Assembly: GCA_036785375.1 (NCBI GenBank)
Contig: JAWMAR010000070.1
Location: 7,378,001 to 7,442,000 of the forward strand
DNA from: Leucoraja ocellata
Lineage: Eukaryota
DNA: 64,000 bases
Direction: 5' to 3'
This document shows, in pieces, positions 29,633 through 62,167 of the stretch. The notes beneath the pieces were generated by a model. That model did no database searches. It was not told the DNA's origin and saw nothing but the letters and a program-made list of their open reading frames with translations. The position numbers and the translations under genes are program-made. Position 1 is the stretch's first letter. Each line of letters opens with the position of its first letter.

Positions 29633-30172
29633 ATGGGACTGCAGAGATGGATAGGATTCATGGTCCTTGTGGAGATGGTGTGGCAAGTCTCCGTAACTGG
29701 AACAGGTCCGATCTCCAGAGAATGGGGAGAGGAAGCAAACTTGGCCGGGCGGAACGCACGGGCGTATTTCAAAGTCACCAATAAACCGCTTCCAAGATGC
29801 ACGAACGAGTCAGATTCTGATGCCATCAGTCATCACCCATCACCGATTAACAAGAAGGTGCTCGTTGCATCTCTGGGCGGTTCTGTTACGTTGCCATGTA
29901 ATATATCCATCCTTAAAAATCATTACAGGTTTGTTGAATGGATAAAAGATGGTGTTGAAATTGCCCATTTCCATGAGAGAGCGTATGCGCATTATACGGG
30001 ATCTGATGTTCACTGGAAGTTCGTTGATCACGACGTCTATGTGACTCAGGACGCCACGTTGCTCCTGACAGGTGTAAAAGAGGAAGATAAAGGGACGTAT
30101 TCCTGTGTTTGGTCCGTGTATAGAGATAGACCGTTTTGTGAATTATTGATGCAGCTGGTGATCTCTCACTGA
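29633..30172 (+). CDS. Secreted single V-set Ig-domain protein, copy B1 (179 aa)
   Basis: Leader; RNAR-AYFK junction; LGGSVTLPC, VEW, DATLLLTGVKEEDKGTYSC, extra Cys PFCELL; stop after the G strand. Confidence 0.9.
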   Translation: MGLQRWIGFMVLVEMVWQVSVTGTGPISREWGEEANLAGRNARAYFKVTNKPLPRCTNESDSDAISHHPSPINKKVLVASLGGSVTLPCNISILKNHYRFVEWIKDGVEIAHFHERAYAHYTGSDVHWKFVDHDVYVTQDATLLLTGVKEEDKGTYSCVWSVYRDRPFCELLMQLVISH

Positions 30173-31016
30173 TTCAGCAGGGCCAGTCCCAGGGTCAGTA
30201 GCAAAGTCTAGTTTAGTTTAGTTCCGTTCAGAGGTACAACAGGGAAACAAGCCCTTCGGCCCACAGAGTCAACGGGGACCAGTGATCACCCCATATACTA
30301 GTACTATCCCACACACTAGATACAATTTACACTGACCAATTAACCTACAAACCTGCACGTCTCTGGGGTGTGGGACGAAACCGGAGCACCCGGATTCCAA
30401 AGAGGAAGGAAGATTCCAAGGGGAGTTAGGGGCGACCGTGGCTGACAAGGGAAGTCAGGGACACTATCACAATAAAAGAGAACAGGTATAACGTTGCAAA
30501 GATGAGCGGAAAGCCAGGGGATTGGGTAACTCTTTTAAAGAGCAACAGAAGATAACTAAAAAAGCAATACGGGGAGAAATGATGAGGTATGAAGGTAAGA
30601 TAGCCAAGAATAGTAAGGAGGATCGTAAAAGCTTCTTTAGATATGTGAAAAAAATTAGTTCAGACTAAAATTGGACCTTTATAGACTAAAAACTTTGGAT
30701 CCGTCTTCACTAAGGAGAACACAAACAATCTCCCTGATGTATTAGTGGTCAGAGGATCTGGGGACAACGGAGAGCCAGTGGATGTAGTGTACCTGGACTT
30801 GCAGGAAGTATTTGATAAGGTCCCACATAGGAGATTAGTGGGCAAAATTAGAGCACATGGTATTGGGGGAAGGGCCTGTTTCCATATTGTTTGACTCTGA
30901 CACTAAGTAGGGAAGAGTAAAGGTATAAAGATGAGCAGCGTGGAAGGTGTGAGCGTGGATCGCATGCAGTGAGGAGAACTGACCTTGCTTGCTCCGGTAA
31001 ATGTACGTTTAATGTA

Positions 31017-31132
31017 AATAAACTTTCTTCTGCCTGCCCTGAAGACAGCCGGTGTGAGTGATTCTTTGTACGCCAGCATTGAGTTGGGTGTGAACTTTGT
31101 GCAACTTTTGCTCACTACGGGCAACATCGCCG
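31017..31132 (+). terminator. Putative polyadenylation signal of B1 (AATAAA 31017-31022) with GT-rich element; homologues at 38153, 44718, 51121, 57636, 63078
   Basis: The only 3' sequence I found shared between subfamilies A and B. Confidence 0.6.
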
Positions 31133-32376
31133 GATTAAAGGGCCTGTCCCACGAGCATGCGACTCCATGCGGCAAGCGCGACCTAACGTGGTCACTTGAG
31201 CCGTACGGCCTCGCGGGGCCGGTCCCACTTTGATCGCCGGAGCCGTATGGAGTTGTGTGGAGCTGGTCCCGACATCGCGCGGGGCTCTGAAAAACTGAAT
31301 ATGTTAGGATATGGAAACAGGTTCTTCGGCCCACCGAGTCTAACCCAACCAGTGATCACCCCTACACTAGTTCTAACCTACACACTACGGACAATTTACT
31401 GAAGCCAATTAACCTACAAATCTACACATCTTTGTAATCTGAAAGGAAACCAGAGCACCCGGAGGAAACCCACGTGGTCACAGGGACAATGTACATACAC
31501 TGTACAGACAGTGCCCGTAGTTACCATCGAAGGCGGGTCTCTAGCGCTGTAAGGCAGCAACTCTACCGCTGCGCCACTGTACCGCCCCTGCATTGCCCTC
31601 GTGCATTGTTAGGGCTGCTGATTAGAGTCCAGTTTTGACCCTCGTTGGGTGTCAATTGTGGTTGTCAAGGAGCTTTCTTACCTCCGTATGGAGCCTGGTC
31701 TTCCAGTTATAGACCCACACCACCCTGGCCACACTCTCGTATCACCACTACTGAGGGGAAAGTACAGGAGCCTGAGAACCGTGAGCTCCAGGTTCAAGAG
31801 CAGCTTCTTCCCAGCAAGCACAAGGTTGTTGAACCAGCCTGCACAACCCCAACCATAACCCTACGCCACTCACCACAACCCTACACAACCCTGATGGACA
31901 CTGCACCACTGGTGATATAAAGTTACTGTGCAGACCAAGTGCAGATCCATTGGGTCTGCTCCCCCAACGCAATATTCCACCACTCACCCGCTCCCCAACA
32001 CTATATTCCACCACTCACTCATAGCCCCCAACTCTGGAGGCGCGGCTCATTTCGCCGCATCCCCTCTTCCTACTCTTCACCCTCCCTCTTCAATACCTAG
32101 AGGGAGAGAGGAGGGGGAGAGAAGGAGAGAGGCAGAGAGAAAGGAGGTAGAGAGAGAGTGGGAAGGGGTAGAGGGAGAAGGAGGGTGGTAGTGGGGGGGG
32201 GGGAGGGATTAAATACATTCTTCTCAAGCTTACCCCCAGTCTAGTTCAGTCAAAAACCACTGAGTCAAGCACTGGAACAACTAATCTTTATTTTTGGATT
32301 GTACATCAAATTCCCCTACACGATACCTAAACCACTGCGGGTTCAATCCTTGTATCTGCTTGGCCAAGCCCTTCAG

Positions 32377-34172
32377 GTCCCTTGCAGTCAGAAGCAAGTG
32401 AATTGATCATGGGGAACAAGGACATGGCAGACCAATTGAATAACTACTTTGGTTCTGTCTTCACTAAGGAAGACATAAATAATCTGCCGGAAATAGCAGG
32501 GGACCGCGGGTCAAATGAGATGGAGGAACTGAGTGAAATCCAGGTTAGCCGGGAAGTGGTGGTAGGTAAATTGAATGAATTAAAAGCCGATAAATCCCCA
32601 GGGCCAGATAGGTTGCATCCCAGAGTACTTAAGGAAGTAGCCCCAGAAATAGTGGATGCATTAGTGATAATTTTTCAAAACTCTTTAGATTTGGAAGTAG
32701 TTCCTGAGGATTGGAGGGTAGCTAATGTAACACCACATTTTAAAAAGAGAGGGAGAGAGAAAATGGGGAATTACAGACCAGTTAGTCTAACGTCGGTAGT
32801 GGGGAAACTGCTAGAATCAGTTATTAAAGATGGGATAGTAGCACATTTGGAAAGTGGTGAAATCATTGGACAAGGTCAGCATGGATTTATGAAGGGTAAA
32901 TCATGTCTGACGAATCTTATAGAATTTTTCGAGGATGTAACTAGTAGAGTGGATAAGGGAGAACCAGTGGATGTGTTGTATCTGGACTTCCAGAAGGCTT
33001 TCAACAAGGTCCCACATAAGAGATTAGTATACAAACTTAAAGCACACGGTATTGGGGGTTCAGTACTGATGTGGATAGAGAACTGGCTGGCAGACAGAAA
33101 GCAAAGAGTAGGAGTAAACGGGTCCTTTTCAGAATGGCAGGCAGTGACTAGTGGGGTACCGCAAGGCTCAGTTCTGGGACCCCAGCTATTTACGGTATAT
33201 ATTAATGATTTGGACGAGGGAATTGAATGCAACATCTCCAAGTTTGCGGATGACACAAAGCTGGGGGCAGTGTTAGCTGTGAGGAGGATGCTAGGAGGCT
33301 GCAAGGTGACTTGGATAGGCTGGGTTGGTGGGCAAATGCATGGCAGATGCAGTATAATGTGGATAAATGTGAGGTTATCCACTTTGGTGGCAAAAACAGG
33401 AAATTAGACTATTATCTGAATGGTGGCCGATTAGGAAAGGGGGAGATGCAACGAGACCTGGGTGTCATGGTACACCAGTCATTAAAAGTAGGCATGCAGG
33501 TGCAGCAGGCAGTGAAGAAGGCGAATGGTATTTTAGCATTCATAGCAAAAGGATTTGAGTATAGGAGAAGGGAGGTTCTACTGCAGTTGTACATGCTCTT
33601 GGTGAGACCACACCTGGAGTATTGCGTACAGTTTGGTCTCTTAATCTGAGGAAAGACATTCTTGCCATAGAGGGAGTACAGAGAAGGCTCACCAGACTGA
33701 TTCCTGGGATGTCAGGACTTTCATATGACGAAAGACTGGATAGACTCGGTTTGTACTCGCTAGAATTTAGAAGATTGAGGGGGGATCTTATAGAAACTTA
33801 CAAAATTCTTAAGGGGTTGGACAGGCTAGATGCAGGAAAATTGGTCCCGATGTTGGGGAAGTCCAGAACAAGGGGTCACAGTTTAAGGATAAGGGGGAAA
33901 TCTTTTGGGGCCGAGATGAGGAAAACTTTTTTCACACAGCGTGGTGAATCTCTGGAACTCTCTGCCACAGAGGGTAGTTGAAGCCAGTTCATTGGCTATA
34001 TTTAAGAGGGAGTTAGATGTGGCCCTTGTGGCTAAATGGATCAGGTGGTATGGAGAGAACGCAGGTACAGGATACTGAGTTGGATGATCTGCCATGATCA
34101 TATTGAATGGCAGTGCAGGCTCGAAGGGCCGAATGGCCTACTCCTGCACCTGTACCTATATATGTTTCTATG
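32377..34172 (+). mobile_element. 5'-truncated CR1 LINE (~1.8 kb, RT domain with frameshifts), unique to the B1 unit
   Basis: [51 protein letters not shown]; TSD TTCAG (32372-32376 and 34173-34177); empty site ccttcagcctcg in three other units. Confidence 0.93.
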
Positions 34173-34842
34173 TTCAGCCTCGTGCAAGCAGAAACACTCC
34201 AAAAGGTCACGCTGTCCCAAGGATTCTTCCAGAAGATCGACAAAGGACCTCGTGGGGGCTGCCTTTTATAAGTCCCCGAACCTTGAGGGGCCGAACTACA
34301 TAGGGGTGGTCTCTTTACAATCCAATCAAACATATTAATTACATCAGTATATTATAGACAGTTCCCCAGACCACTAACAGTCTCCCACACATTGTTTCAG
34401 GAGAAGCTTCTGGAAGATGCTAACTTAACTTGAATAATGCAACATTTACCCTGGAATTCAAACAAACCTGCCAGGGCTCAACACTTTAGCCAATCAACAA
34501 ACAGTAGGATAACTGCCTGGCACATTATGTACAATATTTACAATGCTGTTACAGTAATCTAATCAACCATGCATTTACACTTCATTGGAGGTCATCTCCA
34601 TGCATGGAAATCGGTATCAAAACATGGGGGGGGCACAATTCCATGGCGGCACACATGCACACGCGTGCATGCGGCACACACGCGAGGATTCAGCCATGGG
34701 CCCTGTGGACGGTAACATCGGGAACTGACTTGGTTGGTGACCGACTCCGAACTCCAGCAACAGCAGCTTCGTCCGCCCGGAATCGTGGGGCTTGAATCGG
34801 CCCGTTCGCGGGGCCTTTCATCGCCCGGCGGGGGTTTCAACA

Positions 34843-35588
34843 TTGGTATTGATGTGGATAGAGAACTGGCTGGCAGACAGAAAGCAAAGAGTAGGAGTAA
34901 ACGGGTCCTTTTCAGAATGGCAGACAGTGACTAGTGGGGTACTGCAAGGCTCAGTGCTGGGACCCCAGCTATTTACAATATATATTAATGATTTGAATGA
35001 GGGAGTTGAATGCAACATCTCCAAGTTTGCGGATGACACGAAACTGGGGGGCAGTGTTAGCTGTGAGGAGGACGCTAGGAGGCCGCAAGGTGACTTGGAT
35101 AGGTTGGGTTAGTGGGAAAATGAATGGAAGATGCAGTATAATGTGGATAGATGTGAGGTTATCCATTTTGGTGGCAAAAACAGGAAAGTAGATTATTATC
35201 TGAATGGTGGCCGATTAGGAAAAGGGGAGATGCAACGAGACCTGGGTGTCATGGTACACCGGTCATTAAAAGTGGGCATGCAGGTGCAGCAGGCAGTGAA
35301 GAAAGAGAATGGTATGTTAGCTTTCATTGCAAAAGGATTTGAGTATAAGAGCAGGGAGGTTCTACTGCAGTTGTACAAGGTCTTGGTGAGACCACACCTG
35401 GAGTATTGCGTACAGTTTTGGTCTCATAATCTGAGGAAAGACATTCTTGCCATAGAGAGAGTACAGAGAAAGTTCACCAGACTGATTCCTGGGATGGCAG
35501 GACTTTATGGCATACTGAGTTGGATGATCAGTATAATCATATTAAATGGCAGTGCAGGCTCGAAGGGCCGAATGGCCTACTCCTGCAC
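34843..35588 (+). mobile_element. Internally deleted CR1 fragment amplified with the tandem unit (also ~40323-41087, 46796-47548, 53301-54057, 58676-59441)
   Basis: [13 protein letters not shown]...FADDTK...RPHLEYCVQFWS with the same junctions in five units. Confidence 0.88.
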
Positions 35589-35898
35589 CTATTTTCCATG
35601 TTTCTATGGGAGCCTCGATCGCCTCGATGCAGCAGTTTGATTTTAAGCCGCTTGGGCGCTGAAAGGCCCCGCGAACGGGACGATTCTGCCCATAGAAAGC
35701 GTCTGATAAAGTCCGGAACACAAAACATGGGCGGGGGGGGAATCGTCCCCCACCTCCCAAAGCATAGGGGGACATGCCCCCTGTCCCCCCCCCCCAGGAT
35801 TCCTGCCCATGGCGGTCACGATGTCTCCTTCACCGCCGCAGTCTCGACGCCTCTATGATGGCCGCGAAAAACTCAGATCTCTGGGTTGACCAGAACGA

Positions 35899-36124
35899 GA
35901 CGTGGTGGAGACACAAGCAGGATGTGTGGGGCGCCTGGTTGGCCGCTGGCAGCTGGGATGACGTTGTTCTTGTTAAACGTTAACGGCTGATGCAACGACA
36001 CGTTTGGCAGAGGGTGGAGAGGTCGCGGCTGACTCCGGCCAATGCTCCGTGGGAGGCAGTGATTGGTTGAATGTACGTGAGGGCAGACAATGAGGGGCAG
36101 GAGAAGCCGGGAGTCGGTATAAAA
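35899..36124 (+). promoter_or_regulatory. Promoter of B2 (ERSE 36048-36066, TATA 36118-36124)
   Basis: Same motif block as B1. Confidence 0.7.
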
Positions 36125-36771
36125 GGAGCGAGCGATGGCAGGAGATGAGAACAAGACCGACCCCGTCACCCTGTGTGGAGACTCCGGAGCTGGTAACCAA
36201 CCCTGTGGATCCTTCAAGTGTCTGTGAGTGATGGGGGTGGGATTGTCTCTGTTCACTGTTCCCCCAGTTCAGAAGCCTGATAGCAGAGGGGAAGAAGCTG
36301 TTCCTGAGTCTGGTGGTGCGCGCTTTCAAGCTTCTGTACCTTCTGCTAGACAGGACCAGGGAGAAGGAGGAATGACAGGGGTGGGACAAGTGATGGAGTC
36401 ATAGAGTCACAGCGAGACCTTCGGCCCAACTTGCCCGCGCCCACCAACGTGTCCCCATCAATACTAGACCCACCTGCCTGCGTTTGGCCCTTACCCCTCT
36501 AATCCTGTCCTATCAATGTACCTGTCTAACTGTTTCTTAATCATTGTGATAGTACCTGCCTCAACTACCTCTTCCGGCAGCTCGTTCCAAACACCCTCCA
36601 CCCTTTGTGTAAAAAAAGTCACCCCTCAGTTTCCCATGAAATCTTTCCCCCCCTCACCTTAAACCGATGTCCTCTGGTTCTCGATTCCCCAACTCTGGGC
36701 GGGTTCAGGGAATGTCATCATGAATCCTACTGAGTTGCAATAAGGTGACCCATTGTTTCACCCACAGGAAC

Positions 36772-37308
36772 ATGGGGCTGCAGAGATGGATAGGATTCAT
36801 GGTCCTTGTGGAGATGGTGTGGCAAGTCTCCGTAACTGGAACAGGTCCGATCTCCAGCGAATGGGGAGAGGAAGCAAACTTGGCCGGGTGGAATGCACGG
36901 GCCCCTCGGCAAGTCACCGATGAACAGCTTCCAAGATGCACGGACAAGTCAGATTCTGATGCCATCAGTCATCACCTATCAACGATTAACAAGAAGGTGC
37001 TCGTTGCATCTCTGGGTGGTTCTGTTACGTTGCCATGTAATGTATCCAACGTTGACAATAGTCCCACGGTTACATGGAAAAAAGATGGTGTTGAAATTGC
37101 CTATTTCCATAGTAGAGTGCATGAGCGTTATAAGGGATCTGATGTTCACTGGAAGTTCGTGGAACGAAACGTCCTTTGGAAACAGGACGCCACGTTGCTC
37201 CTGACAGGTGTAAAAGAGGAAGATACAGGGACGTATTCCTGTGTTTGGATCAAGTATCCTAAGAAACCGTTTTGTGAATTATTGATGCAGCTGATGATCT
37301 CTCACTGA
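36772..37308 (+). CDS. Secreted single V-set Ig-domain protein, copy B2 (178 aa)
   Basis: Leader; RAPR|Q; CNVSNVDNSPTVTW; EDTGTYSCVWIKYPKKPFC. Confidence 0.9.
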   Translation: MGLQRWIGFMVLVEMVWQVSVTGTGPISSEWGEEANLAGWNARAPRQVTDEQLPRCTDKSDSDAISHHLSTINKKVLVASLGGSVTLPCNVSNVDNSPTVTWKKDGVEIAYFHSRVHERYKGSDVHWKFVERNVLWKQDATLLLTGVKEEDTGTYSCVWIKYPKKPFCELLMQLMISH

Positions 37309-40300
37309 TTCAGCAGGGCCAGTCCCAGGGTCAGTAACAAAGTCTAGTTTAGTTTAGTTCCGTTCAGAGGTACAACAGGGAAACAAGCCCTTCGGCCCAC
37401 AGAGTCAATGGGGACCAGTGATCACCCCATATACTAGTACTATCCCACACACTAGATACAATTTACACTGACCAATTAACCTACAAACCTGCACGTCTCT
37501 GGGGTGTGGGACGAAACCGGAGCTCCCGGATTCCAAAGAGGAAGGAAGATTCCAAGGGGAGTTAGGGGCGACCGTGGCTGACAAGGGAAGTCAGGGACAC
37601 TATCACAATAAAAGAGAACAGGTATAACGTTGCAAAGATGAGCGGAAAGCCAGGGGATTGGGTAACTCTTTTAAAGAGCAACAGAAGATAACCAAAAAAG
37701 CAATACGGGGAGAAAAGATGAGGTATGAAGGTAAGATAGCCAAGAATAGAAAGGAGGATCGTAAAAGCTTCTTTAGATATGTGAAAAAAATTAGTTCAGA
37801 CTAAAATTGGTCCTTTATAGACTAAAAACTTTGGATCCGTCTTCACTAAGGAGAACACAAACAATCTCCCTGATGTACTAGTGGCCAGAGGATCTGGGGA
37901 CAATGGAGAGCCAGTGGATGTAGTGTACCTGGACTTGCAGGAAGTATTTGATAAGGTCCCACATAGGAGATTAATGGGCAAAATTAGAGCACATGGTATT
38001 GGGGGAAGGGCCTGTTTCCATATTGTTTGACTCTGACACTAAGTAGGGAATAGTAAAGGTATAAAGATGAGCAGCGTGGAAGGTGTGAGCGTGGATCACA
38101 TGCAGTGAGGAGAACTGACCTTGCTTGCACCGGTAAATGTACGTTTAATTTAAATAAACTCTCTTCTGCCTGCCCTGAAGACAGCCGGTGTGAGTGATTC
38201 TTTGTACGCCAGCATTGAGTTGGGTGTGAACTTTGTGCAACTTTTGCTCACTACGGGCAACATCGCCGGATTAAAGGGCCTGTCCCACGAGCATGCGACT
38301 CCATGCGGCAAGCGCGACCTAACGTGGTCACTTGAGCCGTACGGCCTCGCGGGGCCGGTCCCACTTTGATCGCCGGAGCCGTATGGAGTTGTGTGGAGCT
38401 GGTCCCGACATCGCGCGGGGCTCTGAAAAACTGAATATGTTAGGATATGGAAACAGGTTCTTCGGCCCACCGAGTCTAACCCAACCAGTGATCACCCCTA
38501 CACTAGTTCTAACCTACACACTAGGGACAATTTACTGAAGCCAATTAACCATCAAATCTACACGTCTTTGTAATCTGAAAGGGAACCAGAGCACCCGGAG
38601 GAAACCCACATGGTCACAGGGACAATGTACATACACTGTACAGACAGTGCGCGTAGTTACAATCGAAGGCGGGTCTCTAGCGCTGTAAGGCAGCAACTCT
38701 ACCGCTGCGCCACTGTACCGCCCCTGCATTGCCCTCGTGCATTGTTAGGGCTGCTGATTAGAGTCCAGTTTTGACCCTCGTTGGGTGTCAATTGTGGTTG
38801 TCAAGGAGCTTTCTTACCTCCATATGGAGCCTGGTCTTCCAGTTATAGACCCACACCACCCTGGCCACACTCTCTTATCACCACTACTGAGGGGAAGGTA
38901 CAGGAGCCTGAGAACCGTGAGCTCCAGGTTCAAGAGCAGCTTCTTCCCAGCAAGCACAAGGTTGTTGAACCAGCCTGCACAACCCCAACCACAACCCTAC
39001 GCCACTCACCACAACCCTACACAACCCTGATGGACACTGCACCACTGGTGATGCCCCACGTACGTTGTCTTGTACTATCATGGTCTGGTTTACTTGGAAT
39101 AACTGAGACCTTATTGTGTACTTATGGTGTAAGTATATAATCATGATAGGCCAGGGTAGACAGTGGAGGGCTGCCACTACAGAGCCACCCATAGACCTGA
39201 TAGAATTATATAAAGTTACTGTGCAGACCAAGTACAAACCCAACGCAATATTCCACCACTCATCCATTCCCCAACGCTATATTCCACCACTCACTCATAG
39301 CCCCTAATTGTGCAGGAGCGGCTCATTTCTCCGTTTCCCCTCTTCCTCCTCTTCACCCTCCCTCTTCAATACCTAGAGAGGGAGGAGGGGTAGAGGGAGG
39401 GCGTAGAGAGGGAGAGAGGCAGAGAGAAAGGGGGTAGAGAGAGAGTGGGAAGGGGTAGAGGGTGAGGGGGGGGGTAGAGTGGGGTGGAGGGATTAAATAC
39501 ATTATTTTCAAGCTTACCCCCAGTCTAGTTCAGTCAAAAACCACTGAGTCAAGCACTGGAACAATTAATCTTTATTTTTGGATTGTACATCTAATTCAAC
39601 TACACGATACCTAAACCACTGCGGGTTCAATCCTTGTATCTGCTTGGCCAAACCCTTCAGCCTCGTGCAAGCAGAAACACTCCAAAAGGTCACGCTGTCC
39701 CAAGGATTCTTCCAGAAGATCGACAAAGGACCTCGTGGGGGCTGCCTTTTATAAGTCCCCGAACCTTGAGGGGCCGAACTACATAGGGGTGGTCTCTTTA
39801 CAATCCAATCAAACATATTAATTACATCAGTATATTATAGACAGTTCCCCAGACCACTAACAGATCCCATACATTGTTTCAGGAGAAGCTTCTGGAAGAT
39901 GCTAACTTAACTTGAATAATGCAACATTTACCCTGGAATTCAAACAAACCTGCCAGTGCTCAACACTTTAGCCAATCAACAAACAGTAGGATAACTGCCT
40001 GGCACATTATATACAATATTTACAATGCTGTTGCAGTAATCCAATCAACCATGCATTTACACTTCATTGGAGGTCATCTCCTTGCACGGAAATCGGCATC
40101 AAAACATGGGGGTGCACAATTCCATGGCGGCACACATGCACACGTGTGCATGCGGCACACACGCGAGGATTCGGCCATGGGCCCTGTGGACGGTAACATC
40201 GGGAGCTGACTTGGTTGGTGACCGACTCCGAACTCCAGCAACAGCAGCTTCGTCCGCCCGGAATCGTGAGGCTTGAATCGGCCCGTTCGCGGGGCCTTTC

Positions 40301-43281: not shown

Positions 43282-43818
43282 ATGGGACTGCAGAGATGGA
43301 TAGGATTCATGGTCCTTGTGGAGATGGTGTGGCAAGTCTCCGCAACTGGAACAGGTCCGATCTCCAGAGAATGGGGAGAGGAAGCAAACTTGGCCGGGCG
43401 GAACGCACGGGCTCCTCGACAAGTCACCAATGAAACGCTTCCAAGATGCACGAACGAGTCAGATTCTGATGCCATCAGTCATCACCTATCAACGATTAAC
43501 AAGAAGGTGCTCGTTGCATCTCTGGGTGGTTCTGTTACTTTGCCATGTAATGTATCCAACGTTGACAATAGTCCCGAGGTTACATGGAATAAAGATGGTG
43601 TTGAAATTGCCTATTTCCATAGTAGAGTGCATGAGCGTTATACAGGATCTGATGTTCACTGGAAGTTCGTGCAACGAAACGTCCTTTGGGAACAGGACGC
43701 CACGTTGCTCCTGACAGGTGTAAAAGAGGAAGATAAAGGGACGTATTCCTGTGTTTGGATCAAGTATCGTCAGAAACCGGTTTGTGAATTATTGATGCAG
43801 CTGATGATCTCTCACTGA
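43282..43818 (+). CDS. Secreted single V-set Ig-domain protein, copy B3 (178 aa)
   Basis: Leader; RAPR|Q; CNVSNVDNSPEVTW; EDKGTYSCVWIKYRQKPVC. Confidence 0.9.
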   Translation: MGLQRWIGFMVLVEMVWQVSATGTGPISREWGEEANLAGRNARAPRQVTNETLPRCTNESDSDAISHHLSTINKKVLVASLGGSVTLPCNVSNVDNSPEVTWNKDGVEIAYFHSRVHERYTGSDVHWKFVQRNVLWEQDATLLLTGVKEEDKGTYSCVWIKYRQKPVCELLMQLMISH

Positions 43819-49740: not shown

Positions 49741-50280
49741 ATGGGACTGCAGAGATGGATAGGATTCATGGTCCTTGTGGAGATGGTGTGGCAAGTCTCC
49801 GCAACTGGAACAGGTCCGATCTCCAGAGAATGGGGAGAGGAAGCAAACTTGGCCGGGCGGAACACACGGGCGTATTTCAAAGTCACCAATGAACCGCTTC
49901 CAAGATGCACGAACGAGTCAGATTCTGATGCCATCAGTCATCACCCATCACCGATTAACAAGAAGGTGCTCGTTGCATCTCTGGGTGGTTCTGTTACGTT
50001 GCCATGTAATATATCCATCCTTAAAAATCATTACAGGGTTGTTCAATGGAAAAAAGATGGTGTTCAAATTGCCAGTTTCCATGAGAGAGCGTATGCGCGT
50101 TATACGGGGTCTGATGTTCACTGGAAGTTCGTTGATCACGACGTCTATATGGCTCAGGACGCCACGTTGCTCCTGACAGGTGTAAAAGAGGAAGATACAG
50201 GGACGTATTCCTGTGTTTGGTTCCATTATAGAGATAGACCGTTTTGTGAATTATTGATGCAGCTGATGATCTCTCACTGA
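49741..50280 (+). CDS. Secreted single V-set Ig-domain protein, copy B4 (179 aa, B1-type)
   Basis: Leader; RNTR-AYFK; CNISILKNHYRVVQW; EDTGTYSCVWFHYRDRPFC. Confidence 0.9.
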   Translation: MGLQRWIGFMVLVEMVWQVSATGTGPISREWGEEANLAGRNTRAYFKVTNEPLPRCTNESDSDAISHHPSPINKKVLVASLGGSVTLPCNISILKNHYRVVQWKKDGVQIASFHERAYARYTGSDVHWKFVDHDVYMAQDATLLLTGVKEEDTGTYSCVWFHYRDRPFCELLMQLMISH

Positions 50281-53200
50281 TTCAGCAGGGCCAGTCCCAG
50301 GGTCAGTAGCAAAGTCTAGTTTAGTTTAGTTCCGTTCAGAGGTACAACAGGGAAACAAGCCCTTCGGCCCACAGAGTCAACGGGGACCAGTGATCACCCC
50401 ATATACTAGTTCTATCCCACACACTAGATACAATTTACACTGACCAATTAACCTACAAACCTGCACGTCTCTGGGGTGTGGGACGAAACCGGAGCACCCG
50501 GATTCCAAAGAGGAAGGAAGATTCCAAGGGGAGTTAGGGGCGACCGTGGCTGACAAGGGAAGTCAGGGACACTATCAAAATAAAAGAGAACAGGTATAAC
50601 GTTGCAAAGATGAGCGGAAAGCCAGGGGATTAGGTAACTCTTTTAAAGAGCAACAGAAGATAACTAAAAAAGCAATACGGGGAGAAAAGATGAGGTATGA
50701 AGGTAAGATAGCCAAGAATAGAAAGGAGGATCGTAAAAGCTTCTTTAGATATGTGAAAAAAATTAGTTCAGACTAAAATTGGACCTTTATAGACTAAAAA
50801 CTTTGGATCCGTCTTCACTAAGGAGAACACAAACAATCTCCCTGATGTACTAGTGGCCAGAGGATCTGGGGACAATGGAGAGCCAGTGGATGTAGTGTAC
50901 CTGGACTTGCAGGAAGTATTTGATAAGGTCCCACATAGGAGATTAATGGGCAAAATTAGAGCACATGGTATTGGGGGAAGGGCCTGTTTCCATATTGTTT
51001 GACTCTGACACGAAGTAGGGAATAGTAAAGGTATAAAGATGAGCAGCGTGGAAGGTGTGAGCGTGGATCGCATGCAGTGAGGAGAACTGACCTTGCACTG
51101 GTAAATGTACGTTTAATTTAAATAAACTTTCTTCTGCCTGCCCTGAAGACAGCCGGTGTGAGTGATTCTTTGTACGCCAGCATTGAGTTGGGTGTGAACT
51201 TTGTGCAACTTTTGCTCACTACGGGCAACATCGCCGGATTAAAGGGCCTGTCCCACGAGCATGCGACTCCATGCGGCAAGCGCGACCTAACGTGGTCACT
51301 TGAGCCGTACGGCCTCGCGGGGCCGGTCCCACTTTGATCGCCGGAGCCGTATGGAGTTGTGTGGAGCTGGTCCCGACATCGCGCGGGGCTCTGAAAAACT
51401 GAATATGTTAGGATATGGAAACAGGTTCTTCGGCCCACCGAGTCTAACCCAACCAGTGATCACCCCTACACTAGTTCTAACCTACACACTAGGGACAATT
51501 TACTGAAGCCAATTAACCATCAAATCTACACGTCTTTGTAATCTGAAAGGGAACCAGAGCACCCGGAGGAAACCCACATGGTCCCAGGGACAATGTACAT
51601 ACACTGTACAGACAGTGCCCGTAGTTACCATCGAAGGCGGGTCTCTAGCGCTGTAAGGCAGCAACTCTACCGCTGCGCCACTGTACCGCCCCTGCATTGC
51701 CCTCGTGCATTGTTAGGGCTGCTGATTAGAGTCCAGTTTTGACCCTCGTTGGGTGTCAATTGTGGTTGTCAAGGAGCTTTCTTACCTCCGTATGGAGCCT
51801 GGTCTTCCAGTTATAGACCCACACCACCCTGGCCACACTCTCTTATCACCACTACTGAGGGGAAGGTACAGGAGCCTGAGAACCGTGAGCTCCAGGTTCA
51901 AGAGCAGCTTCTTCCCAGCAAGCACAAGGTTGTTGAACCAGCCTGCACAACCCCAACCACAACCCTACGCCACTCACCACAACCCTACACAACCCTGATG
52001 GACACTGCACCACTGGTGATGCCCCACGTACGTTGTCTTGTACTATCATGGTCTGGTTTACTTGGAATAACTGAGACCTTATTGTGTACTTATGGTGTAA
52101 GTATATAATCATGATAGGCCAGGGTAGACAGTGGAGGGCTGCCACTACAGAGCCGCCCATAGACCTGATAGAATTATATAAAGTTACTGTGCAGACCAAG
52201 TACAAACCCAACGCAATATTCCACCACTCACCCATTCCCCAACGCTATATATTCCACCACTCACTCATAGCCCCTAATTGTGCAGGAGCGGCTCATTTCT
52301 CCGTTTCCCCTCTTCCTCCTCTTCACCCTCCCTCTTCAATACCTAGAGAGGGAGGAGGGGTAGAGGGAGGGCGTAGAGAGGGAGAGAGGCAGAGAGAAAG
52401 GGGGTAGAGAGAGAGTGGGAAGGGGTAGAGGGTGAGGGAGGGGGGGGGGGGGTAGAGTGGGGTGGAGGGATTAAATACATTATTTTCAAGCTTACCCCCA
52501 TTCTAGTTCAGTCAAAAACCACTGAGTCAAGCACTGGAACAATTAATCTTTATTTTTGGACTGTACATCTAATTCAACTACACGATACCTAAACCACTGC
52601 GGGTTCAATCCTTGTATCTGCTTGGCCAAACCCTTCAGCCTCGTGCAAGCAGAAACACTCCAAAAGGTCACGCTGTCCCAAGGATTCTTCCAGAAGATCG
52701 ACAAAGGACCTCGTGGGGGCTGCCTTTTATAAGTCCCCGAACCTTGAGGGGCCGAACTACATAGGGGTGGTCTCTTTACAATCCAATCAAACATATTAAT
52801 TACATCAGTATATTATAGACAGTTCCCCAGACCACTAATAGATCCCATACATTGTTTCAGGAGAAGCTTCTGGAAGATGCTAACTTAACTTGAATAATGC
52901 AACATTTACCCTGGAATTCAAACAAACCTGCCAGGGCTCAATACTTTAGCCAATCAACAAACAGTAGGATAACTGCCTGGCACATTATATACAATATTTA
53001 CAATGCTGTTGCAGTAATCCAATCAACCATGCATTTACACTTCATTGGAGGTCATCTCCTTGCACGGAAATCGGTATCAAAACATGGGGGTGCACAATTC
53101 CATGGCGGCACACATGCACACGTGTGCATGCGGCACACACGCGAGGATTCGGCCATGGGCCCTGTGGACGGTAACATCGGGAGCTGACTTGGTTGGTGAC

Positions 53201-55373
53201 CGACTCCGAACTCCAGCAACAGCAGCTTCGTCCGCCCGGAATCGTGAGGCTTGAATCGGCCCGTTCGCGGGGCCTTTCATCGCCCGACGGGGGTTTCAAC
53301 ATTGGTATTGATGTGGATAGAGAACTGGCTGGCAGACAGAAAGCAAAGAGTAGGAGTAAACGGGTCCTTTTCAGAATGGCAGGCAGTGACTAGTGGGGTA
53401 CTGCAAGACTCAGTGCTGGGACCCCAGCTATTTACGATATATATTAATGATCTGGATGAATGCAACATCTCCAAGTTTGCAGATGACACGAAATGGGGGG
53501 CAGTGTTAGCTGTGAGGAGGATGCTAGGAGGCTGCAAGGTGACTTGGATATGTTGGGTGAGTGGGCAAATGCATGGAAGATGCAGTATAATGTGGATAAA
53601 TGTGAGGTTATCCATTTTGGTGTAAAAAACAGGAAAGTAGATTATTATCTGAATGGTGGCCGATTAGGAAAAGGGGAGATGCAACGAGACCTGGGTGTCA
53701 TGGTACACCAGTCATTAAAAGTGGGCATGCAGGTGCAGCAGGCAGTGAAGAAAGAGAATGGTATGTTAACATTCATAGCAAAAGGATTTGAGTATAAGAG
53801 CAGGGAGGTTCTACTACAGTTGTACAGGGTCTTGGTGAGACCACACCTGGAGTATTGCGTACAGTTTTGGTCTCCTAATCTGAGGAAGGACATTATTGCC
53901 ATAGAGGGAGTACAGAGAAAGTTCACCAGACTGATTCCTGGGATGTCAGGACTTTATGGCATACTGAGTTGGATGATCAGTATAATCATATTAAATGGCA
54001 GTGCAGGCTCGAAGGGCCGAATGGCCTACTCCTGCACCTATTTTCTATGTTTCTATGGGAGCCTCGATCGCCTCGATGCAGCAGTTTGATTTTAAGCCGC
54101 TCGGGCGCTGAAAGGCCCCGCGAACGGGACGATTCTGCCCATAGAAAGCGTCTGATAAAGTCCGGAACACAAAACATGGGCGGGGGGGGAATCGTCCCCC
54201 ACCTCCCAAAGCATAGGGAGACATGCCCCCTGTCCCCCCCCAGGATTTCCGCCCATGGCGGTCACGATATCTCCTTCACCGCCGCAGTCTCGACGCCTCT
54301 TTGATGGGCGCGAAAAACCCCATGTGGGGCGTAGAAGGCCGGGTCGGATAAAGCGGAAAGTTAATTTCAATGAGGTCCTCCCCCTGACGTCACTGGAAGC
54401 TGCTGGTCGACCACTCCCCCTTTGTGACATCACTCGAAGGGGGGTGAAGGTTTGCCGTTTAATAAGTTGGTTTTCACTATTTTTAAAACGCTATAACTTG
54501 TGAACTACAGCATGTAATGTGAAGTGGAGCAGTTTATTTTGTCAAAGGGGTTAATGTGATTAATAATGTGCGGAGGAGGGGAGGAGGAGAGGGGAGAGAA
54601 GGAGGAGGGTGTAGACGAGGGGGAGGGAGTGTAAGAGACTCGCCTGCGCAGTTGTGGGGTATGGGTGAGTGGTGGAATATTACGTTGGGGGGACGGGTAC
54701 ATCGCAAAGGAATCTCATTTAGATTTCTTGGGAGGAGGCTTTTCATTGTGGGGGGTGGAATTGCTGAGAGGTTTCATTTACTCCTTATTTATAAAATAAT
54801 TACGATTGTGGGGAGGGGTGGGTTGGGGGCGGGGGCTCCCCGTTTCATTGTGGGGGGGTGGAGTAAGAGAGAGGTTTCATTTCCAGAATTTTCCTTGCTA
54901 GGGGATGGGGTGAGTATTGTGGGGTATGGGTGAGTGGTGGAATATTACGTTGGGGGAACGGGACCCAACGGGTCCCACTTGGTCTAGTTATCATTATTTA
55001 TTTAATGTTTCACGTTTACACCAATCTCTCCACCACCACGAACAAGCAGCACAAGACGCGACAAGACAGACACCATTGTATGCAGATGCCGAGAAGTGTG
55101 ATCAGCTCTGGCTGAACAACTAATCTTGTGTGTGGATTCGATAAGCAGAAGATTTAATGTCATAGTGTTATACAGTCATAGAGTGATACAGCATGGAAAC
55201 AGGCCCTTTGGCCCAACTTGCCCACATTGGACAACATGTCCCAGCTACACTAGTCCCACCTGTCCACGTTTGGTCCATATCCCTCCAAATCTGACCTATC
55301 CCTGTTCCTGTCTAGCAGTTTCTTAAACGTCGGGATAGTTTCTGCCTCAACTGCGATGGGTTGACCAGAACGA

Positions 55374-55599
55374 GACGTGGTGGAGACACAAGCAGGATGT
55401 GTGGGGCGCCTGGTTGGCCGCTGGCAGCTGGGATGACGTTGTTCTTGTTAAACGTTAACGGCTGATGCAACGACACGTTTGGCAGAGGGTGGAGAGGTCG
55501 CGGCTGACTCCGGCCAATGCTCCGTGGGAGGCAGTGATTGGTTGAATGTACGTGAGGGCAGACAATGAGGGGCAGGAGAAGCCGGGAGTCGGTATAAAA
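55374..55599 (+). promoter_or_regulatory. Promoter of B5 (ERSE 55523-55541, TATA 55593-55599)
   Basis: Same motif block. Confidence 0.7.
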
Positions 55600-56250
55600 G
55601 GAGCGAGCGATGGCAGGAGATGAGAACAAGACCGACCCCGTCACCCTGTGTGGAGACTCCGGAGCTGGTAACCAACCCTGTGGATCCTTCAAGTGTCTGT
55701 GAGTGATGGGGGTGGGATTGTCTCTGTTCGCTGTTCCCCCAGTTCAGAAGCCTGATAGCAGAGGGGAAGAAGCTGTTCCTGAGTCTGGTGGTGCGCGCTT
55801 TCAAGCTTCTGTATCTTCTGCTAGACAGGACCAGGGAGAAGGAGGAATGACCGGGGTGGGACAAGTGATGGAGTCATAGAGTCACAGCGAGACCTTCGGC
55901 CCAACTTGCCCGCGCCCACCAACGTGTCCCCATCAATACTAGACCCACCTGCCTGCGTTTGGCCCTTACCCCTCTAATCCTGTCCTATCAATGTACCTGT
56001 CTAACTGTTTCTTAATCATTGTGATAGTACCTGCCTCAACTACCTCTTCCGGCAGCTCGTTCCAAACACCCTCCACCCTTTGTGTAAAAAAGTCACCCAT
56101 CAGTTTCACATTAAATCTTTCCCCCCCCCCCCTCGCCTTAAACCGATGCCCTCTGGTTCTCGATTCCCCAACTCTGGGCGGGTTCAGGGAATGTCATCAT
56201 GAATCCTACTGAGTTGCAATAAGGTGACCCATTGTTTCACCCACAGGAAC

Positions 56251-56787
56251 ATGGGACTGCAGAGATGGATAGGATTCATGGTCCTTGTGGAGATGGTGTG
56301 GCAAGTCTCCGCAACTGGAACAGGTCCGATCTCCAGAGAATGGGGAGAGGAAGCAAACTTGGCCGGGCGGAACGCACGGGCCCCTCGGCAAGTCACCAAT
56401 GAAACGCTTCCAAGATGCACGAACGAGTCAGATTCTGATGCCATCAGTCATCACCTATCAACGATTAACAAGAAGGTGCTCGTTGCATCTCTGGGTGGTT
56501 CTGTTACTTTGCCATGTAATGTATCCAACGTTGACAATAGTCCCGAGGTTACATGGAATAAAGATGGTGTTGAAATTGCCTATTTCCATAGTAGAGTGCA
56601 TGAGCGTTATAAGGGATCTGATGTTCACTGGAAGTTCGTGCAACGAAACGTCCTTTGGGAACAGGACGCCACGTTGCTCCTGACAGGTGTAAAAGAGGAA
56701 GATAAAGGGACGTATTCCTGTGTTTGGATCAAGTATCGTCAGAAACCGGTTTGTGAATTATTGATGCAGCTGATGATCTCTCACTGA
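56251..56787 (+). CDS. Secreted single V-set Ig-domain protein, copy B5 (178 aa)
   Basis: Differs from B3 by one residue (RYKG vs RYTG). Confidence 0.9.
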   Translation: MGLQRWIGFMVLVEMVWQVSATGTGPISREWGEEANLAGRNARAPRQVTNETLPRCTNESDSDAISHHLSTINKKVLVASLGGSVTLPCNVSNVDNSPEVTWNKDGVEIAYFHSRVHERYKGSDVHWKFVQRNVLWEQDATLLLTGVKEEDKGTYSCVWIKYRQKPVCELLMQLMISH

Positions 56788-59700
56788 TTCAGCAGGGCCA
56801 GTCCCAGGGTCAGTAACAAAGTCTAGTTTAGTTTAGTTTAGTTCCGTTCAGAGGTACAACAGGGAAACAGGCCCTTCGGCCACAGAGTCAATGGGGACCA
56901 GTGATCACCCCATATACTAGTTCTATCCCACACACTAGATACAATTTACACTGACCAATTAACCTACAAACCTGCACGTCTCTGGGGTGTGGGACGAAAC
57001 CGGAGCTCCCGGATTCCAAAGAGGAAGGAAGATTCCAAGGGGAGTTAGGGGCGACCGTGGCTGACAAGGGAAGTCAGGGACACTATCACAATAAAAGAGA
57101 ACAGGTATAACGTTGCAAAGATGAGCGGAAAGCCAGGGGATTAGGTAACTCTTTTAAAGAGCAACAGAAGATAACCAAAAAAGCAATACGGGGAGAAAAG
57201 ATGAGGTATGAAGGTAAGATAGCCAAGAATAGAAAGGAGGATCGTAAAAGCTTCTTTAGATATGTGAAAAAAATTAGTTCAGACTAAAATTGGTCCTTTA
57301 TAGACTAAAAACTTTGGATCCGTCTTCACTAAGGAGAACACAAACAATCTCCCTGATGTACTAGTGGCCAGAGGATCTGGGGACAATGGAGAGCCAGTGG
57401 ATGTAGTGTACCTGGACTTGCAGGAAGTATTTGATAAGGTCCCACATAGGAGATTAATGGGCAAAATTAGAGCACATGGTATTGGGGGAAGGGCCTGTTT
57501 CCATATTGTTTGACTCTGACACTAAGTAGGGAATAGTAAAGGTATAAAGATGAGCAGCGTGGAAGGTGTGAGCGTGGATCACATGCAGTGAGGAGAACTG
57601 ACCTTGCTTGCACCGGTAAATGTACGTTTAATTTAAATAAACTCTCTTCTGCCTGCCCTGAAGACAGCCGGTGTGAGTGATTCTTTGTACGCCAGCATTG
57701 AGTTGGGTGTGAACTTTGTGCAACTTTTGCTCACTACGGGCAACATCGCCGGATTAAAGGGCCTGTCCCACGAGCATGCGACTCCATGCGGCAAGCGCGA
57801 CCTAACGTGGTCACTTGAGCCGTACGGCCACGCGGGGCCGGTCCCACTTTGATCGCCGGAGCCGTATGGAGTTGTGTGGAGCTGGTCCCGACATCGTGTG
57901 GAGCTGGTCCCAACATCGCATATGTTAGGATATGGAAACAGGTTCTTCGGCCCACCGAGTCCAACCCAACCAGTGATCACCCCTACACTAGTTCTAACCT
58001 ACACACTAGGGACAATTTACTGAAGCCAATTAACCATCAAATCTACACGTCTTTGCAATCTGAAAGGAAACCAGAGCACCCGGAGGAAACCCACATGGTC
58101 ACAGGGACAATGTACATACACTGTACAGACAGTGCCCGTAGTTACCATCGAAGGCGGGTCTCTAGCGCTGTAAGGCAGCAACTCTACCGCTGCGCCACTG
58201 TACCGCACCTGCATTGCCCTCGTGCATTGTAGGGCTGCTGATTAGAGTCCAGTTTTGACCCTCGTTGCGTGTCAATTGTGGTTGTCAAGGAGCTTTCTTA
58301 CCTCCGTATGGAGCCTGGTCTTCCAGTTATAGACCCACACCACCCTGGCCACAAACAGTAGGATAACTGCCTGGCACATTATATACAATATTTACAATGC
58401 TGTTGCAGTAATCTAATCAACCATGCATTTACACTTCCTTGGAGGTCATCTCCTTGCACGGAAATCGGCATCAAAACATGGGGGGCCACAATTCCATGGC
58501 GGCACACATGCACACGCGAGGATTCGGCCGTGGGCCCTGTGGACGGTAACATCGGGAGCTGACTTGGTTGGTGACCGACTCCGAACTCCAGCAACAGCAG
58601 CTTCGTCCGCCCCGAATCGTGAGGCTTGAATCGGCCCGTTCGCGGGGCCTTTCATCGCCCGGCGGTGGTTTCAACATTGGTATTGATGTGGATAGAGAAC
58701 TGGCTGGCAGACAGAAAGCAAAGAGTAGGAGTAAACGGGTCCTTTTCAGAATGGCAGGCAGTGACTAGTGGGGTACTGCAAGACTCAGTGCTGGGACCCC
58801 AGCTATTTACGATATATATTAATGATCTGGATGAGGGAGTTGAATGCAACATCTCCAAGTTTGCAGATGACACGAAATGGGGGGCAGTGTTAGCTGTGAG
58901 CAGGATGCTAGGAGGCTGCAAGGTGACTTGGATAGGTTGGGTGAGTGGGCAAATGCATGGAAGATGCAGTATAATGTGGATAAATGTGAAGTTATCCATT
59001 TTGGTGGCAAAAACAGGAAAGTAGATTATTATCTGAATGGTGGCCGATTAGGAAAAGTGGAGATGCAACGAGACCTGTGTGTCATGGTACACCGGTCATT
59101 AAAAGTAGGCATGCAGGTGCAGCAGGCAGTGAAGAAAGAGAATGGTATGTTAGCATTCATAGCAAAAGGATTTGAGTATAAGAGCAGGGAGGTTCTACTG
59201 CAGTTGTACAGGGTTTTGGTGAGACCACACCTGGAGTATTGCGTACAGTTTTGGTCTCCTAATCTGAGGACAGACATTCTTGCCATAGAGAGAGTACAGA
59301 GAAAGTTCACCAGACTGATTCCTGGGATGTCAGGACTTTATGGCATACTGAGTTGGATGATCAGTATAATCATATTAAATGGCAGTGCAGGCTCGAAGGG
59401 CCGAATGGCCTACTCCTGCACCTATTTTCTATGTTTCTATGGGAGCCTCGATCGCCTCGATGCAGCAGTTTGATTTTAAGCCGCTCGGGCGCTGAAAGGC
59501 CCCGCGAACGGGACGATTCTGCCCATAGAAAGCGTCTGATAAAGTCCGGAACACAAAACATGGGCGGGGGGGAATCGTCCCCCACCTCCCAAAGCATAGG
59601 GAGACGTGCCCCATGTCCCCCCCCAGGATTTCCGCCCATGGCGGTCACGATATCTCCTTCACCGCCGCAGTCTCGACGCCTCTTTGATGGCCGCGAAAAA

Positions 59701-60756
59701 CCCCATGTGGGGCGTAGAAGGCCGGGTCGGATAAAGCGGAAAGTTAATTTCAATGAGGTCCTCCCCCTGACATCACTGGAAGCTGCTGGTCGACCACTCC
59801 CCCTTTGTGACATCACTCGAAGGGGGGTGAAGGTTTGCCGTTTAATAAGTTGGTTTTCACTATTTTTAAAACGCTATAACTTGTGAACTACAGCATGTAA
59901 TGTGAAGTGGAGCAGTTTATTTTGTCAAAGGGGTTAATGTGATTAATAATGTGCGGAGGAGGGGAGGAGGAGAGGGGAGAGAAGGAGGAGGGTGTAGACG
60001 AGGGGGAGGGAGTGTAAGAGACTCGCCTGCGCAGTTGTGGGGTATGGGTGAGTGGTGGAATATTACGTTGGGGGGACGGGTACATCGCAAAGGAATCTCA
60101 TTTAGATTTCTTGGGAGGAGGCTTTTCATTGTGGGGGGTGGAATTGCTGAGAGGTTTCATTTACTCCTTATTTATAAAATAATTACGATTGTGGGGAGGG
60201 GTGGGTTGGGGGCGGGGGCTCCCCGTTTCATTGTGGGGGGGTGGAGTAAGAGAGAGGTTTCATTTCCAGAATTTTCCTTGTGGGAGGGTGGGGTGAGTAT
60301 TGTGGGGTATGGGTGAGTGGTGGAATATTACGTTGGGGGAACGGGACCCAACGGGTCCCACTTGGTCTAGTTATCATTATTTATTTAATGTTTCACGTTT
60401 ACACCAATCTCTCCACCACCACGAACAAGCAGCACAAGACGCAACAAGACAGACACCATTGTATGCAGATGCCGAGAAGTGTGATCAGCTCTGGCTGAAC
60501 AACTAATCTTGTGTGTGGATTCGATAAGCAGAAGATTTAATGTCATAGTGTTATACAGTCATAGAGTGATATAGCATGGAAACAGGCCCTTTGGCCCAAC
60601 TTGCCCGCATTGGACAACATGTCCCAGCTACAATAGTCCCACCTGTCCACGTTTGGTCCATATCCCTCCAAATCTGACCTATCCCTGTTCCTGTCTAGCT
60701 GTTTCTTAAACGTCGGGATAGTTTCTGCCTCAACTGCGATGGGTTGACCAGAACGA

Positions 60757-60982
60757 GACGTGGTGGAGACACAAGCAGGATGTGTGGGGCGCCTGGTTGG
60801 CCGCTGGCAGCTGGGATGACGTTGTTCTTGTTAAACGTTAACGGCTGATGCAACGACACGTTTGGCAGAGGGTGGAGAGGTCGCGGCTGACTCCGGCCAA
60901 TGCTCCGTGGGAGGCAGTGATTGGTTGAATGTACGTGAGGGCAGACAATGAGGGGCAGGAGAAGCCGGGAGTCGGTATAAAA
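60757..60982 (+). promoter_or_regulatory. Promoter of B6 (ERSE 60906-60924, TATA 60976-60982)
   Basis: Same motif block. Confidence 0.7.
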
Positions 60983-61630
60983 GGAGCGAGCGATGGCAGG
61001 AGATGAGAACAAGACCGACCCCGTCACCCTGTGTGGAGACTCCGGAGCTGGTAACCAACCCTGTGGATCCTTCAAGTGTCTGTGAGTGATGGGGGTGGGA
61101 TTGTCTCTGTTCACTGTTCCCCCAGTTCAGAAGCGTGATAGCAGAGGGGAAGAAGCTGTTCCTGAGTCTGGTGGTGCGCGCTTTCAAGCTTCTGTACCTT
61201 CTGCTAGACAGGACCAGGGAGAAGGAGGAATGACCGGGGTGGGACAAGTGATGGAGTCATAGAGTCACAGCGAGACCTTTGGCCCAACTTGCCCGCGCCC
61301 ACCAACGTGTCCCCATCAATACTAGACCCACCTGCCTGCGTTTGGCCCTTACCCCCCTAATCCTGTCCTATCAATGTACCTGTCTAACTGATTCTTAATC
61401 ATTGTGATAGTACCTGCCTCAACTACCTCTTCCGGCAGCTCGTTCCAAACACCCTCCACCCTTTGTGTAAAAAAGTCACCCCTCAGTTTCCCATGAAATC
61501 TTTCCCCCCCCCTCGCCTTAAACCGATGTCCTCTGGTTCTCGATTCCCCAACTCTGGGCGGGTTCAGGGAATGTCATCATGAATCCTACTGAGTTGCAAT
61601 AAGGTGACCCATTGTTTCACCCACAGGAAC

Positions 61631-62167
61631 ATGGGACTGCAGAGATGGATAGGATTCATGGTCCTTGTGGAGATGGTGTGGCAAGTCTCCGCAACTGGAA
61701 CAGGTCCGATCTCCAGAGAATGGGGAGAGGAAGCAAACTTGGCCGGGCGGAACGCACGGGCTCCTCGACAAGTCACCAATGAAACGCTTCCAAGATGCAC
61801 GAACGAGTCAGATTCTGATGCCATCAGTCATCACCTATCAACGATTAACAAGAAGGTGCTCGTTGCATCTCTGGGTGGTTCTGTTACTTTGCCATGTAAT
61901 GTATCCAACGTTGACAATAGTCCCGAGGTTACATGGAATAAAGATGGTGTTGAAATTGCCTATTTCCATAGTAGAGTGCATGAGCGTTATACAGGATCTG
62001 ATGTTCACTGGAAGTTCGTGCAACGAAACGTCCTTTGGGAACAGGACGCCACGTTGCTCCTGACAGGTGTAAAAGAGGAAGATAAAGGGACGTATTCCTG
62101 TGTTTGGATCAAGTATCGTCAGAAACCGGTATGTGAATTATTGATGCAGCTGATGATCTCTCACTGA
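61631..62167 (+). CDS. Secreted single V-set Ig-domain protein, copy B6 (178 aa)
   Basis: Protein identical to B3; a synonymous GTT/GTA difference near the end. Confidence 0.9.
   Translation: MGLQRWIGFMVLVEMVWQVSATGTGPISREWGEEANLAGRNARAPRQVTNETLPRCTNESDSDAISHHLSTINKKVLVASLGGSVTLPCNVSNVDNSPEVTWNKDGVEIAYFHSRVHERYTGSDVHWKFVQRNVLWEQDATLLLTGVKEEDKGTYSCVWIKYRQKPVCELLMQLMISH

Follow-up and report, generated by a model that had tools for sequence, protein, structure and literature searches.

A tandem gene family of the skate Leucoraja ocellata encoding single, nectin-like V domains that are likely secreted and under positive selection

Genomic organization and gene architecture

The 64,000-nucleotide stretch of the Leucoraja ocellata genome analyzed here, referred to below as the window (assembly GCA_036785375.1, contig JAWMAR010000070.1, positions 7,378,001 to 7,442,000 of the forward strand), lies within a tandem array of genes encoding single immunoglobulin (Ig) V domains (Table 1). 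The framework motifs and loop variants quoted in a preliminary description of this DNA were all found, in six forward-strand copies (B1 to B6, window 29633-62167) with a spacing of 5.4-7.1 kb between neighbours, and the one-codon indel reported there for the BC loop is borne out. The BC-loop difference among B copies corresponds to a single deep split between two lineages and, since B3, B5 and B6 encode near-identical proteins, the six copies amount to four distinct surfaces in two lineages, not to six independent variants. Three A-type paralogues in the window match the six B copies at the N-terminus. Genome-wide, the family comprises 57 copies on C70 (6.99-7.52 Mb), the sequence that contains the window, plus two on C16; 52 of these 59 copies are intact, as are 51 of the 57 on C70.

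Table 1. Features of the V-gene family within the window
Feature	Position in window	Strand	Remarks
A1 paralogue	3257..3772	-	Architecture as in B genes; V domain divergent
A2 paralogue	6537..7052	-	Mature protein cationic, net +11
A3 paralogue	25507..26019	-	Head-to-head with B1
B1 5' cassette, ~1 kb	28740..29770 (approximate ends)	+	Promoter, exon 1, 543-nt intron, signal/propeptide codons; repeated at every gene
B1 promoter-like motifs and exon 1	28901..29085	+	CCAAT at 28901, ATTGG at 28924, TATAAAA at 28980; GT donor after 29085
B1 exon 2	29629..30172	+	Acceptor to stop; leader and V domain, no leader intron
B1 coding sequence	29633..30172	+	ISIL lineage; likely signal peptide 1-21; Pfam V-set E 4e-8
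B2 coding sequence	36772..37308	+	VSNV lineage
B3 coding sequence	43282..43818	+	VSNV lineage; reference for residue numbers; structure modelled
B4 coding sequence	49741..50280	+	ISIL lineage
B5 coding sequence	56251..56787	+	One residue different from B3
B6 coding sequence	61631..62167	+	Protein identical to B3

The genes share a common layout, in which CCAAT and TATA motifs, which presumably serve as the promoter in B1 together with ATTGG, precede a short first exon; an intron of 541-586 nt separates it from the single coding exon. B1 has an in-frame upstream ATG at 28997, 17 nt past the TATA box, and the NCBI gene models of the little skate begin at this upstream ATG. A 900-base Logan contig encodes an exon 1-exon 2 read-through protein; as the read-through spans more than 1,100 genomic bases, the contig likely derives from spliced mRNA and lends the B1 junction indirect support. 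The coding exon specifies, in order, a likely signal peptide (judged by sequence pattern), an acidic propeptide with an RxxR motif present in 52/52 intact copies, a linker with one cysteine and a V-set domain with an extra cysteine in strand G, directly followed by an in-frame stop, and thus only a single V domain. The V-set domain scores above the Pfam cut-off in all four proteins tested, CBM14 in none of the four, and residues C89, W102, D151, Y155 and C157 of the V domain are invariant. In the two proteins tested, no 19-residue window exceeds a hydropathy of 1.3, as a transmembrane segment would. The signal peptide would be cleaved and the propeptide removed at RxxR. The structure model (mean pLDDT 77) comprises a V domain that includes the C' and C'' strands, with the surroundings of the linker cysteine better ordered than the flanking residues, and gives a soft hint of a second disulfide joining the linker cysteine to that of strand G.

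Positive selection on the V domain

Codon models were applied to 19 distinct mature sequences from 24 B genes (five DNA duplicates dropped) and to 14 from 20 A genes (six dropped), with the seven broken copies of the 59 excluded. The preliminary description had counted by eye about 15 amino-acid against about two synonymous changes between B1 and B4, a tally that agrees with the 15 amino-acid differences recorded here (Nd 17.5, Sd 2.5, dN/dS 2.0; NG86). For the six window copies, the M0 omega is 3.5 (p 0.001 versus 1) and twice the log-likelihood difference (2dL) between M1a and M2a reaches 40.6. In the whole B clade, the M0 omega is 2.57 (p 0.00016 versus 1), M2a assigns 27% of sites to omega 9.8 (2dL 77.8 versus M1a) and M8 is favoured over M8a by a 2dL of 77.6. 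Selection is likewise seen in the A clade (2dL 30.9).

Recombination was detected in the B clade (PHI-like p 0.0015). Nonetheless, with four segment-specific trees the 2dL is still 51.4, and seven neutral simulations on these conflicting trees gave 2dL values of at most 11.6 and M0 omegas of at most 0.86. Omega exceeds 1 after these recombination controls. A count made independently of any codon model gives a weaker signal, with 0-fold sites in the front span varying more than 4-fold sites (33/79 vs 2/14, p 0.04). Positive selection on the V domains is real.

Location of the selected sites and fold affinity

Eighteen sites have a posterior above 0.95, 17 of them within the V domain. Residues were mapped to faces with the PVR alignment and the DSSP assignment of the model. 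Selected positions make up 8/23 of the IMGT-like equivalents of complementarity-determining regions (CDRs), as against 9/86 elsewhere (p 0.008), and 14/40 of the span formed by C-C'-C'' and F-G, as against 3/69 elsewhere (p 4e-5); these p values are descriptive, as the region sets were drawn after the data had been seen. None of the 49 positions on the A/B/D/E side is selected, and the clustering expected by the preliminary description is thus found, with the sites grouped on one side of the domain. Along strand C, variable E99, T101 and N103 alternate with invariant V100, W102 and K104, as they would on a single exposed face. The near-invariance attributed to the frameworks holds for inward-facing and back-sheet residues but not for outward positions of strands C, C', F and G, and the most variable positions include the outward strand residues T101, N103, E108, Y111, I160 and V167.

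The closest fold is the first domain (D1) of nectin-1 (Foldseek E 3e-9; Z 15.9, root-mean-square deviation 1.9, 106 aligned residues), and among single domains the sequence most similar is that of PVR D1. The PVR binding motifs occupy positions 61-63, 76-83 and 127-129 (PMC12945842, PMC10486284), and poliovirus is reported to engage the same residues (PMC12945842). Half of the 14 positions matching these three motifs in the PVR alignment are selected (p 0.0012). The lock motif AX6G occurs in 14/52 intact copies and an aromatic residue at the F128 equivalent (the key) in 26/52, never both in one skate copy: A types carry AX6G (14/20) or GX6G (6/20) and lack the aromatic key, while B types have the key aromatic in 24/24 cases and do not keep the lock Gly.

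The view that positive selection acts on a ligand-binding face therefore stands as regards omega, which exceeds 1 after recombination controls, and the position of the sites on one side of the domain; its antibody-like frame does not. CDR equivalents contain only 8 of the 17 selected positions of the V domain, against 14 of the 17 in the front-sheet span through which nectins and PVR bind, and leader and V domain share an exon. Neither a recombination signal sequence (up to three mismatches to the consensus, -90/+120 of the stop) nor a J motif (F/W-G-x-G) was found in any of the 52 intact copies. Judged from sequence, the pattern is one of diversifying selection on a V domain of adhesion or receptor type and does not fit an antibody.

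Homogenization of the 5' cassette

A single exon is here sharply split into a homogenized 5' part and a 3' part that is kept diverse. Over the 880 nt upstream, B copies differ from one another by 0.5-1.5%; the silent divergence of the V domain between lineages is 6-11%. Among nine C70 paralogues, promoter and exon 1 are 98.9-100% identical and V-domain DNA 52-87%; with the leader included, the 5' identity is 99-100%. Of the 40 full matches scored, 31 are identical over 291 nt. The uniform block takes in the repeat-derived intron in most paralogues, and the mean DNA distance over 1275 pairs is 0.038 for the prepro region versus 0.317 for the mature region. The unlinked C16 copy has a V domain nearest to type F (77%) and a promoter only 90% identical. 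The simplest reading is that gene conversion of the 1-kb 5' cassette, ending within the coding exon, is likely ongoing. Sharing a converted promoter cassette, all paralogues would be expressed together. The 1-kb cassettes of A3 (25871-26913) and B1 (28741-29762) form a 98% inverted repeat, and this head-to-head A/B arrangement occurs six times in the array. Capture of the promoter from a chitinase gene was considered and rejected, since chitinase-linked promoter matches in 610 kb were only at chance level.

Chromosomal setting

The C70 array is present in two versions of like gene order, which agree at about 99.4% over blocks of 43-46 kb and lie across an assembly gap at 7,312,930, with 32 copies on one side (C70:6985005-7312929) and 25 on the other (7313130 onward). 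These two arrays likely correspond to two haplotypes, in which case they would suggest copy-number polymorphism within one animal. Chitinase genes flank the V-gene array, one more lies inside each half, and GH18 exons are distributed over C70 6.93-7.96 Mb (the Pfam scan of the flanks covered the 150 longest of 304 non-repeat frames). The chitinase gene to the left of the window and within the array (C70:7365786-7376440) encodes a GH18 domain with the DxxDxDxE motif and a CBM14-like last exon, and the nearest known sequence to the chitinase exon tested is acidic mammalian chitinase.

Relatives and transcripts

Relatives, all of them automatic gene models, were found in the little skate Leucoraja erinacea (LOC129708937-42/45/46), in Rhinoraja longicauda (LOC144605155) and in the electric ray Narcine bancroftii (XP_069798310), named 'uncharacterized' or, in Narcine, 'nectin-1-like'. 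They have the family and its architecture in common with the window genes. The eight distinct little-skate gene IDs are fewer than the copies found here, and some counterparts are close, A1 differing at two residues and another A type at four. By inspection, the Narcine protein shows the common leader pattern, PRQV, four cysteines, AX6G and TYP. A profile search again returned eight batoid proteins and no shark relative, and a search with the electric-ray protein matched only itself. Among the best 150 matches in a library of 1.84 billion, only P0007 and P0075 are full-length single-stretch proteins, the others being multi-Ig proteins; a shark member could be unannotated or rank below 150. The ESM Atlas yielded only generic V-set, CD200 and nectin clusters. 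In the literature searched (mostly excluding subscription papers and supplements), no description of the family was found, also under locus and accession prefixes. The family appears to be undescribed and seems confined to skates and rays. A viral origin of the leader-plus-V exon is unsupported, BFVD matches being generic Ig folds at 9-20% identity. No RNA data set was listed as containing the A1 stretch, and high RNA depth on intron and 3' flank corresponds to repeat sequence.

Elsewhere in the genome, the Narcine V domain weakly matches C1288:252001-252345 (E 1.2e-4). The match lies inside an open frame of 459 residues, which could be an Ig gene with one long exon and a relationship to the source of the family.

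Comparison with known V-domain systems

Nectin/PVR proteins combine a V-C2-C2 ectodomain with a transmembrane segment and a tail. The D1 domains of nectins, PVR (CD155), TIGIT and CD226 are the closest in fold and sequence, and the skate selected sites map onto their lock-and-key face. Unlike nectins, the skate proteins have one domain, without C2 domains, membrane anchor or tail, and the family shows a prepro region, an extra Cys pair, dozens of tandem copies and motifs that are partly lost or diversified. The VCBPs of amphioxus and Ciona are V-domain proteins that are encoded in the germline, secreted and active on gut bacteria (PMC4757023, PMC4008424). The interleaving of skate V genes with CBM14-bearing chitinases offers a parallel to them; as opposed to VCBPs, which have two V domains and a C-terminal chitin-binding domain, the skate protein stops after a single V domain and lacks a chitin-binding domain, and VCBP3 D1 ranks only 34th by fold (Z 13.2).

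Pregnancy-specific glycoproteins (PSGs) retain constant-type domains in separate exons. Like the skate family, the CEACAM/PSG group is a secreted branch of the Ig superfamily that has expanded in a lineage-specific manner and varies in copy number (PMC3628338). It differs in that the skate locus is a chitinase cluster and no CEACAM is among the matches listed. With the V domains of antibodies, T-cell receptors and IgNAR the skate proteins share the V-set fold and variability that includes the BC, C'C'' and FG loops; unlike them, they lack a leader intron and a constant domain, and their germline diversity is centred on the front sheet. Diversified non-rearranging V families are also known in skate MDIRs and fish NITRs and DICPs, which are mostly multi-exon membrane receptors with signalling tails, and none of these was among the relatives returned by our searches.

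Origin of the diversification

We consider it highly probable that the genes of the window belong to a tandem family of likely secreted, nectin/PVR-like single V domains under positive selection. A fuller reading, to which we would give about an even chance, is that they encode secreted nectin-like V binders, selected on their front face, which act at the body surface against microbes or viruses. Positive selection on the predicted front binding face would then probably reflect a role of the paralogues as soluble decoys or binders of rapidly changing microbes or viruses, with gene conversion evening out the cassette and selection keeping the V domains distinct. Together they would likely form an inherited repertoire for recognition that does not rely on antibodies. 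Defence as the driver of diversification, with which the neighbouring chitinase genes and the cationic A-type proteins are in keeping, is our best guess, put forward with slightly less than even confidence. Beyond this, one may envisage, tentatively and on the doubtful side, a wholly inherited second repertoire, in which a V domain of nectin descent, no longer tied to the membrane, would have multiplied within a chitinase cluster under one conversion-kept promoter-leader cassette and diversified on its virus-receptor face, yielding secreted decoy receptors or mucosal agglutinins. If true, this would be a vertebrate counterpart of the VCBPs, with chitin-handling enzymes encoded alongside.

More generally, diversified non-rearranging V-domain families inform how immune recognition is built outside antibodies, and the selection signal reported here, with omega around 10 on one face, is among the clearer ones. 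The family is also predicted to offer a natural small disulfide-stabilized binding scaffold, and it supplies directly testable targets in its tissue of expression and its ligand.

Several points qualify the selection analysis or weigh against the defence reading. The codon models are our own implementation (GY94/F3x4, naive empirical Bayes), B1 versus B4 alone does not reject neutrality (Fisher p 0.27) and, over the whole V domain, 0-fold and 4-fold variability do not differ significantly (p 0.16). Not all selected sites are on the front face, the exceptions being T52 and three in the DE loop (L135-E137). By fold, CAR and myelin P0 trail nectin-1 by only about one Z unit, so that nectin ancestry is not established. 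No skate copy has the three nectin motifs AX6G, T(F/Y)P and (V/I)(S/T)Q together, and VSQ was not seen. The hydrophobic stretch of the signal peptide contains a Glu, and linkage between V genes and chitinases may be accidental. In four RNA runs from a related organism (tissue unstated, 3-25% of each run read), coding-exon depth is 0 except in one run, where it reaches 1 at most, which implies that the genes are not broadly expressed. Lastly, reproductive proteins yield the same evolutionary pattern.

This last point introduces the main rival, namely that the proteins are reproductive secretions (seminal, clasper-gland, oviducal or egg-jelly proteins) shaped by sexual selection or gamete recognition, an explanation that we regard as unlikely. 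Reproductive proteins are typically secreted, tissue-restricted, fast-evolving and copy-variable, and the near silence in the four RNA runs fits tissue restriction, just as the single common promoter, the secreted architecture, the strong selection and the copy-number change fit the remainder. Several paralogues, however, have close little-skate counterparts, the two A types cited above among them, which places the diversity mainly among old coexisting paralogues and suits a repertoire better than species-specific recognition.

Quite unlikely, in our estimation, is that the paralogues diverged to acquire separate partners, either as soluble ligands of nectin/TIGIT/CD226-like receptors of the skate itself or by pairing with one another in a code, much as PSGs arose from CEACAMs. 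The coincidence of selected sites with the nectin lock-and-key face, the split of lock and key between A and B types and the head-to-head placement of A and B genes would all suit such a code, but host receptors that evolve slowly could hardly sustain an omega of about 10 over a quarter of the sites, and no expanded receptor family was seen in the 610 kb examined. Very improbable is a toxin-like or membrane-active skin or gland secretion, which, like conotoxins and frog skin peptides, would combine a conserved prepro region with a mature part that is hypervariable and rich in disulfides. The difference between prepro and mature distances, the universal RxxR and the cationic A types recall this pattern; still, prepro conservation extends across the promoter and the repeat-derived intron and is thus accounted for by conversion, not by the protein, no toxin family or fold is among the matches listed and, to our knowledge, skates have no sting. 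Least probable of all is a false signal of selection, produced by relaxed constraint together with conversion tracts and duplication in the assembly. Recombination is present, the cluster appears twice across the assembly gap and the codon models are our own; yet relaxation cannot yield an omega above 1, neither the segment-specific trees nor the simulations leave recombination as the cause, 51 of the 57 C70 copies are intact and strand C variability alternates like a surface face.

Other features of the array

The mature A-type proteins are cationic (+3 to +13) and lack His; those of B type carry little net charge and contain 6-9 His as well as 0-3 N-glycosylation sequons. In a further V type, three copies (L045:9380, L054:7103, L072:6113) stop early at 149 residues, before the F-strand Cys. 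Promoter/exon-1 cassettes at C70:7260715-7261068 and 7512132-7512485 have no coding exon anchor nearby, and split cassette fragments occur at C70 7035114-7036486 and 7351382-7352754. The unlinked C16 locus holds two copies (L084:4984, L085:6230), one of them truncated; a C16 leader shares residues with the Rhinoraja protein and has escaped homogenization. A tandem duplication of a 5.7-kb AT-rich unit (99.8% identity) occupies window 8989-21024 and contains neither a V gene nor a cassette motif. LINE-like reverse-transcriptase fragments, recognized by eye, lie at window 32331-33649 and in each B unit.

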